From positions 3,900,001 through 3,932,000 of the forward strand of contig NC_009483.1 in NCBI RefSeq assembly GCF_000016745.1: DNA of 32,000 nt, written 5' to 3'. This document shows positions 21,181 to 30,656 of the stretch, piece after piece; position 1 is the first letter of the stretch, and each line of letters opens with the position of its first letter. Made by a program: the position numbers and the translations under genes. Below the pieces are notes generated by a model that did not search any database, was not told the DNA's origin, and saw only the letters and a program-made list of their open reading frames with translations. This DNA is from Geotalea uraniireducens Rf4. Its GTDB lineage: Bacteria > Desulfobacterota > Desulfuromonadia > Geobacterales > Geobacteraceae.

Positions 21181-22557
21181 TTACTTCTTCAGATCGATCC
21201 CGTAGCTCTTGATCTTTCTGTGCAGGTTACTCCGCTCAAGCTCGATGGACTCTGCTGTTTTGCTGATGTTCCAGTCATGTTCCTCAAGCTTCTGGATGAT
21301 GAATTCCTTTTCGAACTCTTCCCTCGCCTCGCGCAACGAGCTCAGCTCCAGGGCACTTCCCGGCTTTGAGCCCCCCATCTCCCGAGTTGCCTCGCCGGCG
21401 CCGATATAATCGGGTATCTGGTTGACGGTTATGGTCCTGCCCGGGGTCATAATCACGAGACGCTCGATGATGTTTTTCAGCTCCCGCACGTTACCCGGCC
21501 AGTCGTAGCGCTTCATGAGCTCAACCGCCTCAGGCATGAACATCTTCCGCTCCCGCCCTTCCCGCTGACAAAACGTATCGAGGAAGTGCTCGATGAGGAG
21601 GGGTATGTCGTCGGACCTTTCCCTGAGCGACGGGACCTTGAAAGGGACGACATTCAAACGGTAGAACAGGTCTTCGCGGAAGTTGCCGGCCTTGATTTCA
21701 TCCTCCAGCACCTTGTTGGTGGCGGCTACTACGCGCACATCCACCTCAACGGTCTTTGTCCCCCCGACCCTCTCGAATTTGCGCTCCTGGAGAATGCGCA
21801 GCACCTTGGCCTGGGTCTTGAGCGACATGTCGCCAATCTCGTCGAGAAAGATGGTGCCGCCGTCGGCCAGATCGAACTTCCCCTTCTTCTGGGCAACCGC
21901 ACCGGTAAATGCGCCCCGTTCATGGCCGAACAGCTCGGATTCGATCAGCTCTTCCGGAATGGCGGCGCAGTTTATCTCGATGAACGGCTTGTCGCGCCGC
22001 TGGCTGTCGTAATGAATGGAACGGGCCACCAGCTCCTTGCCGGTGCCGTTTTCGCCGGTGATGAGCACCGAAGCGTTGGTGGGGGCGACCAGTTTTATAT
22101 GTTCAGCCAACTGCTTCATCAGCGGCGAAGCGCCGATCATTTCATGGTCCCTGAGGACAATGCTGCGCAGCGAATCGTTCTCTTCCTTGAGGCGGCTCAT
22201 GCCGATGGCGTTATTCACCGACAAGAGGACCTTTTCCAAAGAAAGCGGCTTTTCGACGAAATCGTAAGCGCCCATTTTGGTCGACTTCACGGCGGTTTCA
22301 ATGGTGCCGTGGCCGGACATCATGATCACGGTCAGAACCGGATACAACTCCTTCAGTTTTTGCAGGGTTTCCATGCCGTCCATGCGCGGCATCCAGATAT
22401 CGAGGAGCACCAGCGCCGGCATCTCCTGCTGGACCACGGACAGCGCCTCGACGCCGTCAACGGCAAAAAGGGTCCTGTAGCCCTCGTCTTCCAGTATCCC
22501 CGCCAGGGAGGTGCGGATGCTCTCTTCGTCGTCAACCACCAGTATCGTTGCGCTCAT
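21181..22557 (-). CDS. Sigma-54-dependent response regulator (NtrC family: REC, AAA+, Fis-type HTH)
   Basis: REC domain (ILVVDDE..., DIWMP), Walker A GENGTGKE, the GAFTGA sigma-54 contact loop (ERGAFTGAV) and a C-terminal HTH NISKTAESIELERSNLHRKIK. Confidence 0.9.
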   Translation of the reverse strand: MSATILVVDDEESIRTSLAGILEDEGYRTLFAVDGVEALSVVQQEMPALVLLDIWMPRMDGMETLQKLKELYPVLTVIMMSGHGTIETAVKSTKMGAYDFVEKPLSLEKVLLSVNNAIGMSRLKEENDSLRSIVLRDHEMIGASPLMKQLAEHIKLVAPTNASVLITGENGTGKELVARSIHYDSQRRDKPFIEINCAAIPEELIESELFGHERGAFTGAVAQKKGKFDLADGGTIFLDEIGDMSLKTQAKVLRILQERKFERVGGTKTVEVDVRVVAATNKVLEDEIKAGNFREDLFYRLNVVPFKVPSLRERSDDIPLLIEHFLDTFCQREGRERKMFMPEAVELMKRYDWPGNVRELKNIIERLVIMTPGRTITVNQIPDYIGAGEATREMGGSKPGSALELSSLREAREEFEKEFIIQKLEEHDWNISKTAESIELERSNLHRKIKSYGIDLKK

Positions 22558-25353: not shown

Positions 25354-25953
25354 TTAATCCAGGTTTGGCAGGTTTTCGAGGATAGTACGGGTAATTATCT
25401 GTTTGTGTGAATAGAAGGAGGAAGAATCAGGCGCTATCAGACCTACCACGTAGTACTCCGCATCAATCGGAGGGGTAATGAAGCCGACAACCCGACATTT
25501 ATCGAAATCCAGATCGAGCCATAAAAGTTTACCTGCATCAGGGGCAACCCTTTCCAGTTGTTCCACCGAACAGATCAGCTCGGCGCCGGTACCTTCGAAG
25601 CCATGCCCGGGGATTCTCCCCCTGCTGGCGATGATAAATCCCTGCGAATCAGCTACGAACACGGCTTCGGCTCGTGTCAGGCTCATGCACCAGGCAATGC
25701 ACTCTTCCCAGCTGGGAAATTGCTGCTGGTGAGCCTCGCCCGTCGTCGCCAGGACTTCCGGCGGGGAACCAACGGGAACGGCCGGTGGCCGCGAAGCCAT
25801 GCGGGAGGGGAACTCCTTCGACAACCGCAGGTATTGCGGCGACGCATCCGGGATCGGATTCTCCCGGGTGGCGCCCGCGGCTGCTGGAAACAGGGAACTT
25901 AGGATCTGCTGCGCCTGTTTCAGATCATATGAGTTCGCGCTGCGGTCTTTCAT
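25354..25953 (-). CDS. Roadblock/LC7 (MglB-like) domain protein with Pro-rich N-terminal extension
   Basis: The C-terminal ~110 aa (AEAVFVADSQGFIIASRG...GTGAELICSVEQLERV...DFDKCRVVGFI...YYVVGLIAPDSS) fit the alpha-beta-alpha Roadblock pattern. Its start overlaps the ParA-like gene end by 29 nt. Confidence 0.6.
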   Translation of the reverse strand: MKDRSANSYDLKQAQQILSSLFPAAAGATRENPIPDASPQYLRLSKEFPSRMASRPPAVPVGSPPEVLATTGEAHQQQFPSWEECIAWCMSLTRAEAVFVADSQGFIIASRGRIPGHGFEGTGAELICSVEQLERVAPDAGKLLWLDLDFDKCRVVGFITPPIDAEYYVVGLIAPDSSSFYSHKQIITRTILENLPNLD

Positions 25954-26740
25954 CTGTTTCTCCTGTCACACCACCCAGACCCTGGATGATGTCTTTGATC
26001 TCGGTTACCAGCAACTCGAACCTGACGGCTTCCGGAGGGTATTTCCCCGGCAGGAAGGCTACGGGTAAGCCCTTCTCGCTGGCGACACCGAAGACGTCCG
26101 CTCGCGGAATGTAAGTTTCCAGAACCCCGCGCAAAGATCCCCAAACCGTATTCATGATGTTGAATGATACGTCCTTATTCAACTGAACCATGGTAGCCAG
26201 GATGCCCAACAACTCCAGATTCGGGTTCTCGTTCGCCTTTACGTGCATCAGTACCCGCAAGGTTTGCGAGATTGACCGCAGGGCCAGGGATTCCGCCTGT
26301 AGCGGGAGGAGGACGAAGTTGCTGACGGACAAGGCCGCCCTGGTGATCAGCCCCAAACCTGAGGGGGTGTCGATAATGATGTAGCGGAATTTTTTCTCCA
26401 CGGAGGCGATTACCTCGCTCAGTGTTGACGATGAATGGAGCAGGTCTTCATAGATGCCCACATCGAGCGGATCCAGACGCCCCCGCGGCAAGAGCGAAAG
26501 AGTCGGGAGTTTTGTCGGCATGACGACTTCGTCGATTGGCAGTTTATCCATCATGCATTCGGCAAGGCCCCTCCATTCGGTATCGCTCTGCCCAAGAGAA
26601 AAACCGATCGCACCGAGAGGGTCAACATCAATTAACAGGGTGTTATCCCCGCCTTCCGCCAATGCTACGGCGAGGTTCAACGCTACCGTGGTTTTGCCGG
26701 CTCCCCCCTTTGAACTGACAATGGAAAGAATATTTGCCAT
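25925..26740 (-). CDS. ParA/MinD-family P-loop ATPase
   Basis: Deviant Walker A SSKGGAGKTT, Walker A' LLIDVDPLG and Walker B IIIDTPSG. 271 aa. Confidence 0.85.
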   Translation of the reverse strand: MANILSIVSSKGGAGKTTVALNLAVALAEGGDNTLLIDVDPLGAIGFSLGQSDTEWRGLAECMMDKLPIDEVVMPTKLPTLSLLPRGRLDPLDVGIYEDLLHSSSTLSEVIASVEKKFRYIIIDTPSGLGLITRAALSVSNFVLLPLQAESLALRSISQTLRVLMHVKANENPNLELLGILATMVQLNKDVSFNIMNTVWGSLRGVLETYIPRADVFGVASEKGLPVAFLPGKYPPEAVRFELLVTEIKDIIQGLGGVTGETDERPQRELI

Positions 26741-26785
26741 ATCGTTTTCTCCGATCTCGTTATCCTGTAAATACAGTTCATCCGC

Positions 26786-27367
26786 TTATTTTCTGGTCAC
26801 GACAAATTCGCCGTGCGGATCGCCGGCCTCGATCCCTTTGGTCTGATGGCAGACAAAGGTATTCATCCCGTCGGGATACGGGTCGGCATACGTCAAGTCG
26901 AAGAATGCCTGACATAGACCTCGGAGCATGTATGCGCGCAATCCTTCTCCGCCGCTGTCGGCCTCATAATAATCATTGGCGCGGATGACCATCCGCTCAC
27001 CCTCTTTGAGCTGCACAATTCCCGATTTAGCCCATCCCCAGGCGGTGAAGGCCGCAAACGCTCCCCGCAGAATATCCTTCTCCCCTTCCGTTACCATCGG
27101 AAGGACCACATCGTTAAAGACATCGGACGTTATGATGCCGCATCCGGTATGGTATCCGCATTCGTAGGCCGCCCTGACAAGTCCGTCCGCAACCTTTGAT
27201 TTTTTATCAGGCGGCGCCGCAGCCATGATCCTTTCGGAGAATGTATTTAACAAGGAGGCGGGAAGCAGGTTTACCAGAACATCATATTCCGGTATCAATC
27301 CGTTTTCATCTCCCTGAATATTGATTTTGGCAAGGGACTTTACGACAGTATCGCGCATGACGGTCAT
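26786..27367 (-). CDS. V4R (4-vinyl reductase-like) small-molecule-binding domain protein, paralogue 1
   Basis: The C-terminal GWAKSGIVQLKEGERMVIRANDYYEA...LRGLCQAFFDL...FVCHQTKGIEAGDPHGEFVV follows the COG1719 hydrocarbon-binding-protein pattern. Confidence 0.6.
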   Translation of the reverse strand: MTVMRDTVVKSLAKINIQGDENGLIPEYDVLVNLLPASLLNTFSERIMAAAPPDKKSKVADGLVRAAYECGYHTGCGIITSDVFNDVVLPMVTEGEKDILRGAFAAFTAWGWAKSGIVQLKEGERMVIRANDYYEADSGGEGLRAYMLRGLCQAFFDLTYADPYPDGMNTFVCHQTKGIEAGDPHGEFVVTRK

Positions 27368-27385
27368 TGCATTGCTCCTTCTGTT

Positions 27386-27901
27386 TCAAGATAACGTAAC
27401 GATAAATGTACCTTCAGTTCCATTGACGGCCATACTTTCCGCTTCGGTTACCCTATAGCTTTTTGCCGGTTTATCGAACGCAACCGCGAACATGGCGGCA
27501 ATGTAACCACAGGTGAAGTGATTTACCGGTTTGGTATGGTGGCCCCATTTTTTTATCCAGCCTTCATCGATATGCGACCGTATCAGACACACCTCGCCAC
27601 CGCTCTCGGTGCCGGCCACTTTCATTTTCCCCAGGCCGTAGACGGAATAATACTCCCTCCCGACGTTGCATCTTTGCAGTGGAGAAGTCTGCCCGTTCTT
27701 CTGTACGTAGTCATTCAAAACCGCCCACATGCTCTCTTCCACGACATCCTTGAGCAACTGGGGCCCCCCGATGTCGCTCAACTCTTCTGCCAGTTTCGTA
27801 ATCAACGCCAGATAGTGATGGGAATGCATCACCACCGCATGCCCGTTTAAATAGTGGCGGAAGGTTTCATTATCTAAACTAAAGTCCAATTTCAGTGACA
27901 T
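27386..27901 (-). CDS. V4R domain protein, paralogue 2
   Basis: GLGKMKVAGTESGGEVCLIRSHIDE...KPVNHFTCGYIAAMFAVAF...VTEAESMAVNGTEGTFIV matches the V4R pattern GLGK.E...G...V..S.E....KPVCHF..GY..G.....V.E..C...G...C.F.V. The start is at MSLKLD (ATG 27901). Confidence 0.65.
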   Translation of the reverse strand: MSLKLDFSLDNETFRHYLNGHAVVMHSHHYLALITKLAEELSDIGGPQLLKDVVEESMWAVLNDYVQKNGQTSPLQRCNVGREYYSVYGLGKMKVAGTESGGEVCLIRSHIDEGWIKKWGHHTKPVNHFTCGYIAAMFAVAFDKPAKSYRVTEAESMAVNGTEGTFIVTLS

Positions 27902-27991
27902 TAACCGCGACCCCCTAGCCCTGATAAACACGATAAGTGCGTTAACGAAGTTATTTCCTGCAAAAAAACGCAGAAAATATCTTCTAACTTA

Positions 27992-28789
27992 CTAAAATAA
28001 TAGGACAAGCTCTTCAAAATACTTTTTGGTTTTGTGCCTGATGATGCCGAGTTTCGATGCGTCAGGGGCAATAACTGCCGCAATGGCGTCACCGACAGGC
28101 CTGCACATGATTACCGCCTTCCCGTATTCGATAAACATGTCCTGAAAAAGGTTTACCTTTAACTCACTCCCCATTTCCTCTGTAGCGTTAATCGCATGGG
28201 CCAGGGATGCTCCCAGTTCATCTATGTTAACCCTGCTGCTGTTGCCGGCGGACTCAATAACGAATCCGTCCCTCCCGATCACTACAACCGCGTCTATTCC
28301 CGGAATCATCAATAAATCATTCAACACCGTAGTTGAATCACGTTGATTTGTTTCCATTTCAGTGCTCCTTTCTCCTGGTTTGACATCGATAGTTGTGTTT
28401 GTTTTTGCATTATTTTCAACATTCGTGATTCGCTGATCGTGCAATACAGCAGCCTCGATGATGGCATGCTGTACCGAAAGGCCGATGTTTTTTTCAAATG
28501 CAGTAACATCCGGATTAAATTGAAACTCACCGTGATCCCAGTTCAAAATATCGGCAAGGCCCTCCAGTCCCGAATAAGTATCCGTGGTGACGTTAACGAG
28601 CGCTCCGGCCAGAAAAAAGATCTTGCCCTCGACCCCTTCAGGATGCTTGGTCAAATGGATCATTCCGCTCTTGTAGCTTGCGGCCAGAAACTGGACAAGG
28701 TCCGTAATGTTCGTCAGGGAAAGGCTTCCCTTCAAAAAAGGATTAATGTCGGTAATACGTAAGCGTTCTGAACCGTTAGACATGGGCAT
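27992..28789 (-). CDS. PATAN/DUF4388 N-domain fused to a Roadblock/LC7 C-domain
   Basis: The N-terminal LKGSLSLTNITDLVQFLAASYKSGMIHLT...GKIFFLAGALVNV...GLEGLADILNWDHGEFQF is the DUF4388 signature. The C-terminal GIDAVVVIGRDGFVIESAG...LGASLAHAINATEEMG...IEYGKAVIMCRPVGDAIAAVIAPDASKLG is the Roadblock pattern. Confidence 0.7.
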   Translation of the reverse strand: MPMSNGSERLRITDINPFLKGSLSLTNITDLVQFLAASYKSGMIHLTKHPEGVEGKIFFLAGALVNVTTDTYSGLEGLADILNWDHGEFQFNPDVTAFEKNIGLSVQHAIIEAAVLHDQRITNVENNAKTNTTIDVKPGERSTEMETNQRDSTTVLNDLLMIPGIDAVVVIGRDGFVIESAGNSSRVNIDELGASLAHAINATEEMGSELKVNLFQDMFIEYGKAVIMCRPVGDAIAAVIAPDASKLGIIRHKTKKYFEELVLLF

Positions 28790-28831
28790 CCTCCATGGTC
28801 TGTTTATGTCATTGAACGATCATTGCATTTC

Positions 28832-30226
28832 TTACCTGAAAACAAGCATTGTGGCTGTCTGGTTTATATGACCGATGTATTGCTCTCCGTATGTACTGAA
28901 TCCAATAGTTGGGATACGAGAGAACAGTTCTCCATACTCCCTGGTCAAATTCTTCTGTTTCAGTTCCAGCGTCCTCAGGATGCAATTGAAATTGATAATG
29001 CCGTAGATTCTTCCGGACTCTTCCCTGGACTGGTTGATTGCATTGCGGGTATCCTCGATGATGTCGGCAGATTCGAGCAGGGACAGTTCCATCCCTTCCC
29101 GAACGCCACAATAAAATGCCATGGTGCCGTTATCTTTAATCTGCTGAGGACTCCTGACATAGGGCTCATCGTCTATCAACAGACCTACCGGATTGTGCAT
29201 GAAGTGATTCGAAGCATCCGCGACCGAGGTATTAACCGCTTCGGCATAAGCCGCTGCCGCGGGTTTGCCGTTAAATTCCATGACCACCCGACTCGCTTCA
29301 TCGGCCTTTGTGACCTCAAGACATTTGCCCAGATCACGGAAACTCTGGGTCTTGACAAAGGTAAAATCCGTCCCGGGCTTGAGTAACGCCAGTATTGCCG
29401 CGTTGGTGTAAGTTTTCCCGTTTGCATACAGATGGGTGGAGTTGAACTTCAAATCATCGCCGGCAGACCCGCCTATGAAAACGACATTTGTCAGATCGCC
29501 GATGGTTTCGATCAAGCCCTCCTCGGCGCCGCTTAATCCATCAACCAGCATGATTCCCACATACTCCCGCGACGCCATATCGGCAACAGATTCCCCGAAG
29601 TGGCCGGCAAAAGAATCAAAGGCCTTTTTCACTCCCGCTTGATCCTTTAGATCTTCAATAATCTCGATTTTTGCGTCCAAAAGAGAATCGTCATTGAACC
29701 CCATGACGACAACAGAGTCGTCCAGCATCCTGCCGCTCACAATCTCGCCGGCGGTCGAACAGCCGAAAACCAAAGCAGACGGGAAGGCCTCCTGCATTTT
29801 TCGACTGATTTCGTCAGGGGCAAATCTTGAAGATGCGAAGAACAGCAGAAGCTTCGTGTCGAAAAGAACCAGTTGGTCGCCGATATCTTTAGTAATTTCA
29901 TCAATAGTGTTTTTCGTTGAATGTGCTGTAATAATATCCATTCCATGGATCTTTTTTGCCGGATTGCCCATGGTTGACGTATCATTGCCGTCGCAATGCG
30001 CGCCGATTTCAGGAGATGAGGCTTCCCGGCAGAGATAACCGAGTTCCATCGACATGCCTTCAAGTTGCTGCAACACAGCCGGGTCATCGTCGGATTGAGA
30101 TGTGAACTTGCTTGGGTTAATGCCTTTAAGAATCATTTTAGTTTTGATGATTTTCTCCAGCATTGGGTTGCCGGCAGCCCTCTGCCTGAGAACAAAATCG
30201 ATCATCTCTCTAATTTTGCCCGCCAT
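28832..30226 (-). CDS. FIST (FIST_N and FIST_C) sensory-domain protein with ~90-aa N-terminal extension
   Basis: FASSRF..., ALVFGCSTAGEI, VFIGGSAGD and the C-terminal IGFSTYGEQY.GHINQTATMLVF are FIST hallmarks. No output domain is recognisable. Confidence 0.75.
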   Translation of the reverse strand: MAGKIREMIDFVLRQRAAGNPMLEKIIKTKMILKGINPSKFTSQSDDDPAVLQQLEGMSMELGYLCREASSPEIGAHCDGNDTSTMGNPAKKIHGMDIITAHSTKNTIDEITKDIGDQLVLFDTKLLLFFASSRFAPDEISRKMQEAFPSALVFGCSTAGEIVSGRMLDDSVVVMGFNDDSLLDAKIEIIEDLKDQAGVKKAFDSFAGHFGESVADMASREYVGIMLVDGLSGAEEGLIETIGDLTNVVFIGGSAGDDLKFNSTHLYANGKTYTNAAILALLKPGTDFTFVKTQSFRDLGKCLEVTKADEASRVVMEFNGKPAAAAYAEAVNTSVADASNHFMHNPVGLLIDDEPYVRSPQQIKDNGTMAFYCGVREGMELSLLESADIIEDTRNAINQSREESGRIYGIINFNCILRTLELKQKNLTREYGELFSRIPTIGFSTYGEQYIGHINQTATMLVFR

Positions 30227-30387: not shown

Positions 30388-30403
30388 TGCAACTTGAATA
30401 CCA
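30388..30403 (-). promoter_or_regulatory. Candidate sigma-54 (-24/-12) promoter of the FIST operon
   Basis: The minus strand reads TGGTAT-TCAAG-TTGCA, with exact GG-N10-GC spacing against the consensus TGGCAC-N5-TTGCW. It lies about 160 nt upstream of ATG 30226 in an AT-rich region. Confidence 0.4.
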
Positions 30404-30536: not shown

Positions 30537-30614
30537 GAGAAAGGCTACAACGCGGAGATTGTCCCCACCGCACCTTGTGGATTTTGCGTAAGGTGAAGCA
30601 TGGAATAAGGGCAA

Positions 30615-30656
30615 AAGAAAAACCGCCGTCCCCTTGCGGGAGCGGCGGTTTTTTAG
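30615..30656. terminator. Bidirectional rho-independent terminator
   Basis: CCGCCGTCCC / GGGAGCGGCGG form a stem of about 10 bp with one bulge. It is flanked by AAAAGAAAAA on the left and TTTTTT on the right, directly after the stop of the 114-aa minus-strand gene. Confidence 0.75.

Follow-up and report, generated by a model that had tools for sequence, protein, structure and literature searches.

The subject of this report is a cluster of six genes, designated g1 to g6, all located on the minus strand of a 32,000-nucleotide (nt) stretch of the Geotalea uraniireducens Rf4 chromosome, which was analyzed as a whole and is referred to as the window (positions are those of the window; Table 1). 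The genes encode a FIST protein (g1), a fusion of PATAN/DUF4388 and Roadblock/LC7 domains (g2), a pair of V4R-fold proteins (g3 and g4), a ParA/MinD-family ATPase (g5) and a protein with a probable Roadblock-like domain (g6). The operon is real, conserved and uncharacterized, with a core that is broader and older than was seen in a first-pass annotation of this DNA, and its gene content, with a ParA-type ATPase where related bacteria encode a small Ras-like GTPase, suggests that it may represent a new kind of nucleotide-switch module.

The six open reading frames (ORFs) lie where the first-pass annotation had placed them. The junctions calculated from their coordinates, going from g1 to g6, are 42, 90, 18 and 45 nt, followed by a 29-nt overlap of g5 and g6, and this arrangement agrees with independent public gene calls on metagenome contigs that encode identical proteins, where six genes of 464, 263, 171, 193, 271 and 199 residues are predicted. 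A mechanical ORF list starts g3 at a GTG at 27931, while the 90-nt g2-g3 junction presupposes the ATG at 27901; the ATG is favored since the equivalent methionine begins all homologs and the public gene calls give 171 residues. The domain content proposed at first pass also stands, in that the FIST, PATAN plus Roadblock and ParA/MinD assignments pass Pfam, while the two V4R assignments and the Roadblock assignment of g6 hold at the level of fold or profile.

Table 1. Features of the g1-g6 operon region, in window coordinates (aa, amino acids).
Feature	Position	Strand	Length	Description
Sigma-54-type -24/-12 element, TGGTATTCAAGTTGCA	30388-30403	-		Candidate promoter element, 162 nt upstream of the g1 ATG
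g1	28832-30226	-	464 aa	small63 + linker + FIST_N (aa 125-321) + FIST_C (aa 323-450)
small63 module (g1 aa 1-62)	30041-30226	-		Separate 63-aa gene in most relatives, here fused to FIST
g2	27992-28789	-	265 aa	PATAN/DUF4388 (aa 20-119) + Roadblock/LC7 (aa 154-241)
g2-g3 spacer	27902-27991	-	90 nt	About 13-28 nt in relatives
g3	27386-27901	-	171 aa from ATG at 27901	Predicted V4R-fold protein 'a'; XylR_N+V4R-like sensor fold, first half of pair
g4	26786-27367	-	193 aa	Predicted V4R-fold protein 'b'; second half of pair, best-conserved gene of the cluster
g5	25925-26740	-	271 aa	ParA/MinD-family ATPase, orphan ParA/Soj-like (Pfam and motifs)
g6	25354-25953	-	199 aa	Conserved N-terminal peptide (aa 1-22) + variable Pro-rich linker + probable Roadblock-like domain (aa 83-176)

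The g1 protein is recognized by both Pfam models of the FIST module, FIST_N (PF08495; 146.8 bits, 9.1e-43) and FIST_C (PF10442; 88.9 bits, 4e-25), and aligns end to end with the NCBIfam equivalog model of NosP (NF041558) at 272 bits, which is under the 450-bit cut-off. A PDB sequence search returned no solved relative. It is thus classified, from these matches, as a NosP-like FIST protein without an output domain, and single-domain FIST/NosP proteins are known to act on partners encoded in their own operon (PMC12570481). The small63 module at its N-terminus is joined to FIST by a linker of about 35 residues. At 26 Desulfuromonadia loci (individual loci are numbered with the prefix L) a strongly conserved 63-residue ORF (MAGKIRQMID...DDP...LK-stop) ends about 30 nt before a 368-residue FIST gene (within L008-L037 and L069), and the NCBI annotation of the isolate Syntrophotalea acetylenivorans includes it as a gene of its own (L083:4820-5011). 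No Pfam or NCBIfam family was found for small63.

Both domains of g2 score well above their Pfam cut-offs, PATAN (DUF4388, PF14332) at 64.2 bits against 25 (1.5e-17) and Robl_LC7 (PF03259) at 45.2 bits against 23 (8e-12), and PATAN domains have been tied to MglA/MglB gene neighborhoods (PMC4316618). Most Desulfuromonadia relatives have a further gene of about 300 codons between g4 and g5, designated Y304 (e.g., L002:4879-5808 and L083:8317-9198), whose product matches DUF4388 (E 0.0028) and, by hhalign, the g2 Roadblock domain (E 1e-4), and is predicted to be a second PATAN/Roadblock-like protein. Y304 is missing at the 45-nt g4-g5 junction of the window (26741-26785) and from L005, L006, L031, L033, L035, L038, L039 and L041.

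The V4R assignments were reached by a different route. Neither g3 nor g4 has a Pfam match, even at E<=1, or an NCBIfam match; the curated V4R model (PF02830) does not recognize them, and the canonical V4R Cys/Zn motif is replaced in both. When g3, g4 and g6 were compared with PDB sequences in single-sequence and profile searches, only noise was obtained. The AlphaFold2 model of g3 [predicted local distance difference test score (pLDDT) 92] has as its best Foldseek matches the phenol-sensor domains of PoxR, MopR and DmpR [template modeling (TM) score 0.78 over 172 residues, E 2.5e-8], followed by the V4R protein MJ1460 and Bet3/TRAPPC3, and g3 homologs are labeled '4-vinyl reductase' in some databases. 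The AlphaFold model of g4 is poor (pLDDT 57.6), yet all 50 of its top 50 Foldseek matches belong to the V4R/Bet3/H-NOX/BcsD/YslB fold group that g3 also matches. A g4 profile run against 1.84 billion representatives found only 233 clusters, many of which are proteins of 390-425 residues. P0243 is a single-chain g3-g4 fusion (g3 half 2e-30, g4 half 1e-59), and in more distant tandem fusions matches that pass or come close to Pfam V4R are seen in the N-terminal half of P0283 (3.5e-18) and P0364 (2e-16) and in the C-terminal half of P0288 (8.7e-5) and P0390 (3e-7). Because the halves of such tandem fusions match Pfam V4R, both g3 and g4 are predicted to be divergent V4R-fold proteins, and by alignment and modeling they are placed in the V4R/Bet3/H-NOX fold superfamily.

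Natural fusions of g3-like and g4-like sequences (P0243, P0244, P0283, P0288 and P0364) are about 390-425 residues long, and the distant ones retain the canonical V4R cysteine motif in both halves. The first-pass annotation had called g3 and g4 paralogous, and this holds only at superfamily depth, as the direct signal between them is weak, with a non-significant BLASTP match (E 1.5) and an hhalign comparison of the two families that links their C-terminal halves at E 4e-4 and a probability of 35 %. Across the 80 loci of the survey described below, the invariant residues of g3 are H26, H28, H29, S109, H110, D112, E113, W115, K118, N127 and E153, and those of g4 are the ECGYHTG, AWGWA and DYY motifs together with C173, Q175, E180, D183 and E187. 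Since the same polar residues are invariant at all 80 loci, the biochemical function of the pair would be alike in Geobacter and elsewhere. BchJ-type V4R proteins act as carriers.

The ATPase g5 matches the Pfam models AAA_31 (111.5 bits, 5.8e-32), CbiA (57.2 bits) and BcsQ, and its translation contains an intact deviant Walker A motif, SKGGAGKT, as well as the DVDP and IIDTPSG motifs. None of the NCBIfam equivalogs for partition ParA, MinD, BcsQ, FlhG or Mrp/ApbC reached its cut-off (BcsQ, 84.6 versus 157.9 bits; ParA_partition, 77.5 versus 180 bits), and none of the cognate partners of the ParA/MinD subfamilies (ParB, MinE, BcsE/R) is encoded in the window. The best solved relative of g5 is the chromosomal ParA of Myxococcus xanthus (8RAY; 6.5e-31), and Soj matches at 1e-22. 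The protein has a single, non-conserved Cys and contains no CxC/CxxC motif. The possibility that g5 is the ATPase of a neighboring partition, Min or flagellar system, which the first-pass annotation had raised, was rejected since no ParB, Min, flagellar or chemotaxis genes occur in the 32-kb window.

No Pfam or NCBIfam family matches g6, the Pfam model LAMTOR5 giving only E 0.2. Its C-terminal domain is probably Roadblock-like: residues 83-176 of the g6 family align with the Roadblock domain of the g2 family in hhalign (probability 89 %, E 2.5e-6), and UniRef labels the g6 homolog P0508 (51 % identical) as 'Roadblock/LAMTOR2 domain-containing.' The g6 family is small, with 213 proteins that are all 'hypothetical' apart from P0508, and it occurs only in the operon's own context. 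Both the C-terminal domain and an N-terminal peptide (MKDRSxNSYDLKQAQQIL) are conserved in the family, and the linker between them is variable. ParB, McdB and PomX are partners that stimulate ParA-type ATPases by way of an N-terminal peptide, and they have the layout that is seen in g6. This order of peptide, linker and domain, together with the 29-nt overlap of the two genes, points to g6 as the predicted cognate partner of g5. Within the overlap (25925-25953) the conserved C-terminal tail of g5 (GG.tG..deRpQReLi) coincides with the conserved start of g6, and dual coding may be the reason for the conservation of both ends.

The distribution of the operon was examined by scanning one genome per GTDB species with the g3 alignment, which detected related proteins in 168 species; 80 loci were then retrieved and typed by tblastn and by family hidden Markov models built from these 80 loci. 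The genes for g3 and g4 are adjacent and in the same order in 80/80 loci, which come from more than 10 phyla. In what is termed type A (42 loci, all from Desulfuromonadia), the gene order is small63, FIST, PATAN-Roadblock, g3, g4, Y304 (optional), ParA and g6, and both this order and the tight spacing are kept in 42 species at protein identities of 55-90 %. Of the 34 loci whose contig continues for at least 3 kb past g4, 33 have both ParA and g6 and 26 have Y304, and the co-conservation of the genes is therefore confirmed. At a single type A locus (L032:10083-10187) just the first 35 ParA residues are detectable and g6 is missing, and this truncation may reflect a pseudogene or an assembly problem. 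The cluster of the isolate S. acetylenivorans (L083) has products of 63, 368, 258, 171, 193, 293, 271 and 197 residues. The separate small63 gene and the Y304 gene of the relatives indicate that the operon in the window derives from an eight-gene operon, from which it would have arisen by loss of Y304 and fusion of small63 to FIST. The six-gene unit of the first-pass annotation is thus correct for G. uraniireducens but not for the ancestral Desulfuromonadia operon, which by this comparison had eight genes.

Outside the Desulfuromonadia the same V4R pair has other neighbors. Type B comprises 11 loci from Myxococcota, Holophagae, Thermoanaerobaculia and Anaerolineae with the order Roadblock or PATAN-Roadblock, g3, g4, X381 and Z99, and ParA-g6 comes next in L049, L051 and, at a contig end, L044. 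In all type A and type B loci g2 is directly upstream of g3. Type C comprises 27 loci with the order X381, Z99, c26, g3 and g4 and without a Roadblock, ParA or FIST gene, and these are from Planctomycetota, Verrucomicrobiota, Spirochaetota, Acidobacteriota, Elusimicrobiota, Armatimonadota, Latescibacterota, Firmicutes and others. X381 matches TIGR01977, 'cysteine desulfurase family protein,' at 389.8 bits against a cut-off of 377, with the selenocysteine lyase SclA as the second-best match, and it retains the pyridoxal phosphate lysine and the GLHCAP cysteine. Z99 (about 95 residues) has one invariant Cys and an FPRPxFR motif, and X381 and Z99 flank the V4R pair in 34-36 of the 38 non-Desulfuromonadia loci. 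No homologs of X381, Z99 or c26 were found in the window or within 8 kb of any type A locus. For c26 (about 63 residues) no family was found in Pfam or NCBIfam. It precedes g3 in other phyla and is similar to small63 in its length, in its position and in having a K-x-G-x-P...(D/S)PD(D/S)P pattern; the statistics are weak (hhalign P 0.0024, probability 12 %), and a homology of c26 and small63 is only suggested. That Z99 and c26 might be hidden Roadblock or V4R domains was considered and rejected (hhalign E 0.11-0.87). Taken across these lineages, the V4R pair appears as the deep core, a much older unit than the whole operon.

The five-gene cassette of X381, Z99, c26 and the V4R pair is found in at least 10 phyla (L053-L080, e.g., L063:6299-9130, and L096-L100). 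At two loci from Aminicenantes/Acidobacteria (L062:6460-7773 and L071:5055-6326), a gene with REC, PATAN and Roadblock-like regions is found immediately before c26-g3-g4-X381-Z99 and itself follows a gene for an NtrC-type activator, and the PATAN gene there means that the PATAN link reaches past the 'delta' lineages.

The proposal made at first pass that a ParA-type ATPase takes the place of a small GTPase finds comparative support in the identity of the NTPase next to this core. No MglA-like sequence is present in the window or in the 42 Desulfuromonadia loci, and among all 80 loci one is found only in L048 (Anaerolineae). The MglA query sequence used was judged valid since the L048 match and the L087 homolog match PDB MglA at 4.9e-63. 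In L048 (4484-10626) the tightly packed order is REC-Roadblock-like, MglA, TPR-Roadblock, PATAN-Roadblock, g3, g4, X381 and Z99. A metagenome scan with the L048 g3 protein gave two groups. In the first, from the Chloroflexi (Anaerolineae) lineage, L085 (2462-8700), L086 and L087 (871-6780) have the MglA arrangement of L048 and no ParA. The MglA of L087 matches M. xanthus MglA structures (PDB 6HJH) at that same value, the TPR/zinc-ribbon protein of this lineage matches Pfam Robl_LC7 (1.7e-12), and the g2 homolog has both DUF4388 and Robl_LC7. In the second group (L088, L089 and L090) the order is PATAN-Roadblock, g3, g4, X381, Z99, ParA and g6, and MglA is absent. The core with ParA and a Roadblock partner is therefore present in Acidobacteriota, Myxococcota and Desulfuromonadia (L049, L051, L088-L090 and type A), and the MglA flank and the ParA-g6 flank never occur together in the loci examined. 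The alternation of MglA plus Roadblock with ParA plus g6 beside one and the same core is the best support obtained for a ParA-type ATPase in place of the GTPase, as seen at the level of gene neighborhood in a handful of lineages.

How the cluster relates to characterized systems can be judged from what it shares with each of them. With MglA/MglB of Myxococcus and Thermus it has in common one or more Roadblock proteins encoded with an NTPase and the association with PATAN (PMC4316618), and true MglA is present in the orthologous clusters (L048 and L085-L087). The window, however, contains no small GTPase, as the first-pass annotation had noted for the operon, its NTPase is of the ParA/MinD type (SIMIBI class), and the putative V4R heterodimer and the FIST protein are without known counterpart in the Mgl systems. 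In the Streptomyces conservon (CvnA-D), too, one operon encodes a sensor, a Roadblock protein and an NTPase, which form a putative heterocomplex (PMC4316618), but the histidine-kinase-like CvnA, the DUF742 protein CvnC and the GTPase CvnD are absent from Pfam scans of the six proteins, and the description as conservon-like survives as an analogy of logic only. The absence of a kinase, a DNA-binding domain and an enzymatic output from the operon was noted correctly at first pass. With ParA-ParB, McdA-McdB, PomZ-PomXY and ParC/PpfA the cluster shares the deviant Walker A motif, a ParA/Soj-like g5 and an overlapping partner gene whose product has an N-terminal peptide and a linker, but the folded domain of g6 is Roadblock-like, unlike theirs, and there is no ParB, parS or known cargo here. 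We know of no Roadblock-like ParA adaptor. The stand-alone FIST_N plus FIST_C architecture of g1 and its end-to-end match recall NosP-NahK/NosK, where NosP targets its operon partner (PMC12570481), but g1 is below the NosP cut-off and carries the additional small63 module, and its operon lacks a kinase or c-di-GMP enzyme. The sensor domains of PoxR, MopR and DmpR, to which g3 is structurally most similar, are dimeric small-molecule sensors, but they are homodimeric and form the N-terminal part of sigma-54 activators, whereas g3 and g4 are stand-alone proteins that would form a hetero-pair with a replaced Cys/Zn motif.

The cluster is not assigned to the Mgl, conservon, partition, Min, BcsQ or NosP-kinase systems, since it either lacks their defining components or scores below their cut-offs. 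We judge its mode of action to be closest to that of a Roadblock/PATAN NTPase-regulatory module with an exchanged NTPase. No characterized system of such composition was found in open-access papers and bioRxiv preprints, which agrees with the first-pass annotation, and the same literature contained no description of systems that combine V4R with a desulfurase, V4R with Roadblock/PATAN, or a ParA-like protein with a Roadblock protein or adaptor.

A tentative picture, which we prefer but hold to be somewhat short of probable, is that the operon encodes a cytoplasmic sensory complex assembled around a ParA-type ATPase in lieu of a small GTPase. The facts at the level of the genes are computed, and we infer every step at the level of the proteins. 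In such a complex g3 and g4 would form a heterodimer, as in the PoxR/MopR sensor dimer or Bet3-Trs33, and would bind a small ligand or cofactor, possibly sulfur-derived, by means of the cluster of invariant His, Cys, Asp and Glu residues, with g1 in an auxiliary sensory role comparable to that of NosP toward its kinase. Dimeric platforms would be formed by the Roadblock domains of g2, g6 and, in relatives, Y304, and through them the ligand state of the sensors would be coupled to the cycle of ATP-dependent dimerization and hydrolysis of g5, and the N-terminal peptide of g6 would be the activator of the g5 ATPase. The output would then be neither phosphorylation nor transcription, and the nucleotide state of the ParA protein would set the location of the complex or its choice of partner.

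Several observations weigh against this sensory complex. The g1 protein falls short of the NosP cut-off, and the Roadblock assignment of g6 relies mainly on one profile-profile match, as a thin second reference alignment gave E 0.11 and PDB profiles gave nothing. At 27 of the 80 loci the V4R genes are paired with a desulfurase and two small proteins and there is no NTPase, Roadblock or sensor gene, several Myxococcota loci consist of Roadblock-V4R-V4R without an adjacent NTPase, and the primary role of the V4R pair may be other than signaling. In addition, Roadblock/longin platforms are, to our knowledge, documented for GTPases and not for ParA/MinD ATPases. The first-pass suggestion that ligand sensors replace the kinase of a conservon is not established, because in most phyla the neighbors of the V4R pair are the desulfurase and two small proteins, and genes for Roadblock, ParA and FIST proteins are absent. 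For g5, a role in cargo positioning or cofactor maturation would account for the data roughly as well as a switch would.

Cargo positioning, which we consider somewhat unlikely, would have g5 patterned on the nucleoid, g6 as its adaptor with an activating peptide and the FIST/PATAN-Roadblock/V4R assembly as cargo, and would resemble McdA-McdB of carboxysomes or ParC/PpfA of chemoreceptor arrays. This is consistent with chromosomal ParA and Soj as the closest solved relatives of g5 and with the ParA-partner layout of g6 (N-terminal peptide, disordered linker, dimerization domain) encoded in overlap with g5, and with the established tendency of ParA/MinD genes to lie beside those of their cargo and adaptor (for reviews of these ATPases, see PMC11407121 and PMC10241942), but the presence of MglA, which is not a positioning ATPase, in the equivalent Chloroflexi neighborhood is left unexplained. 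An unlikely alternative is that the cluster is concerned with maturation of a cofactor or metallocluster, where the V4R pair would be the scaffold or carrier of a sulfur cofactor made with X381 and the Cys-bearing Z99, g5 would resemble the maturation ATPases CooC, Mrp/NBP35 and those like NifH, and the Roadblock proteins would be assembly factors. The score of X381 above the TIGR01977 cut-off with its catalytic Lys and Cys motifs kept, the invariant Cys of Z99, the frequency with which both genes adjoin the pair outside the Desulfuromonadia, their position between the pair and ParA-g6 in L049 and L088-L090, and the invariant His, Cys, Asp and Glu residues of g3 and g4 all argue for such a role. 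It is difficult to reconcile with the lack of a desulfurase gene within 8 kb at any of the 42 Desulfuromonadia loci (0/42) or in the window, with the fact that the sole Cys of g5 is not conserved and that CxC/CxxC motifs are absent from it, and with FIST, PATAN, REC and MglA neighbors that are regulatory rather than biosynthetic; moreover, the literature search described above found no open-access paper or bioRxiv preprint tying V4R to desulfurases.

It is also conceivable, although we think it very unlikely, that the operon regulates type IV pilus or motility polarity, with g2 as an MglB-like or PATAN-type motor regulator and the other genes as its input. PATAN genes adjoin those of MglA/MglB (PMC4316618), a preprint on Synechocystis reports that PATAN-domain regulators bind the type IV pilus motor (bioRxiv 10.1101/2021.06.11.447907), and the Geobacter sulfurreducens PATAN protein GSU2641, compared with g2 by domain only, carries the annotation 'GTPase-activating protein, putative.' The window, however, is devoid of pilus, Frz and chemotaxis genes, none is conserved at the related loci, and the argument comes from the domain family alone. 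GSU2641 adjoins extABCD (GSU2642-45), and no functional discussion of it was found in the literature. That the six genes are neighbors by coincidence and have no joint function is improbable in the extreme: the 90-nt g2-g3 spacer with its hairpin could split transcription units in G. uraniireducens, but order and spacing are conserved in 42 species, g5 and g6 overlap, and small63-FIST and g3-g4 fusions occur.

The sensory complex favored here has a possible parallel in eukaryotic and Asgard TRAPP core and Ragulator complexes, in which Bet3/V4R-fold heterodimers together with longin/Roadblock subunits act on an NTPase, and both g3 and g4 match Bet3/TRAPPC3. The likeness is at fold level only (TM 0.4-0.58, about 10 % identity), the NTPase here is an ATPase, and a joint complex is only predicted here from the genes. 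The relationship of TRAPP-type folds has been discussed (PMC10933270), and the structural parallel is intriguing but unproven. Its most far-reaching form, which seems to us quite unlikely, is a bacterial counterpart of TRAPP/Ragulator with a V4R heterodimer and a Roadblock platform that would use MglA in one lineage and would have been rewired to ParA in Desulfuromonadia, Acidobacteriota and Myxococcota, the V4R pair also carrying a sulfur cofactor made by the desulfurase. If this were true, it would be the first Roadblock-type regulation of a SIMIBI ATPase, and the partnership of V4R with Roadblock/longin proteins would be older than eukaryotes.

Across life, from bacteria to humans, small GTPases are regulated by Roadblock/longin platforms, and ParA/MinD ATPases act as spatial organizers. 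A Roadblock partner overlapping a ParA gene, at the position where orthologous clusters hold MglA, suggests that the two types of switch may be interchangeable modules, and the isolates G. uraniireducens Rf4 and S. acetylenivorans would provide a tractable system in which to study Roadblock regulation of ATPases. The survey also exposes a widespread, unnamed V4R hetero-pair (168 species representatives, more than 10 phyla) that is associated with genes for a cysteine desulfurase and two small proteins, and the fact that bacteria encode V4R/Bet3-fold and Roadblock-fold proteins beside MglA is relevant to the question of how TRAPP-like regulators of GTPases originated.

Two elements in the DNA may control expression of the operon. 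The sigma-54-type element TGGTATTCAAGTTGCA is the sole match to TGGYAYN5TTGCW in the window, where 0.11 are expected, and TGGCAT-N5-TTGCA precedes g1 in its six nearest relatives (L001-L004, L008 and L042) but not in more distant Geobacteraceae, making it a candidate operon promoter. The g2-g3 spacer folds into a 15-bp hairpin and a second hairpin over the g3 Shine-Dalgarno sequence and AUG, with a minimum free energy of -26.6 kcal/mol (z -3.3; 0/200 shuffles fold equally well). No Rfam family was found in the operon region, which includes this spacer, and the predicted fold may be an intra-operon control or processing element that is specific to G. uraniireducens. A gene for an NtrC-type sigma-54 activator is located 3 kb downstream of the operon (21181-22557), and activators akin to it, just 35-44 % identical, adjoin the cluster in L031, L049, L060, L062 and L071.

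On its upstream side g1 is bordered by a 400-nt intergenic region, with a hairpin and T-run of the upstream gene at about 30610-30650. Downstream of g6 a 257-nt gap is followed by DoxX and membrane-protein genes, which are considered to be outside the operon unit since tblastn gave zero matches to them in any related locus. An anti-phage defense function of the operon was rejected on the outcome of a comparison with the PADLOC defense-system models, which gave two marginal matches only (E 0.001-0.01). The remainder of the 32-kb window encodes transporters, a transposase, the NtrC-type regulator and others, and an rve-family integrase/transposase gene (1507-2532) that is unrelated to the operon is located at the opposite end.

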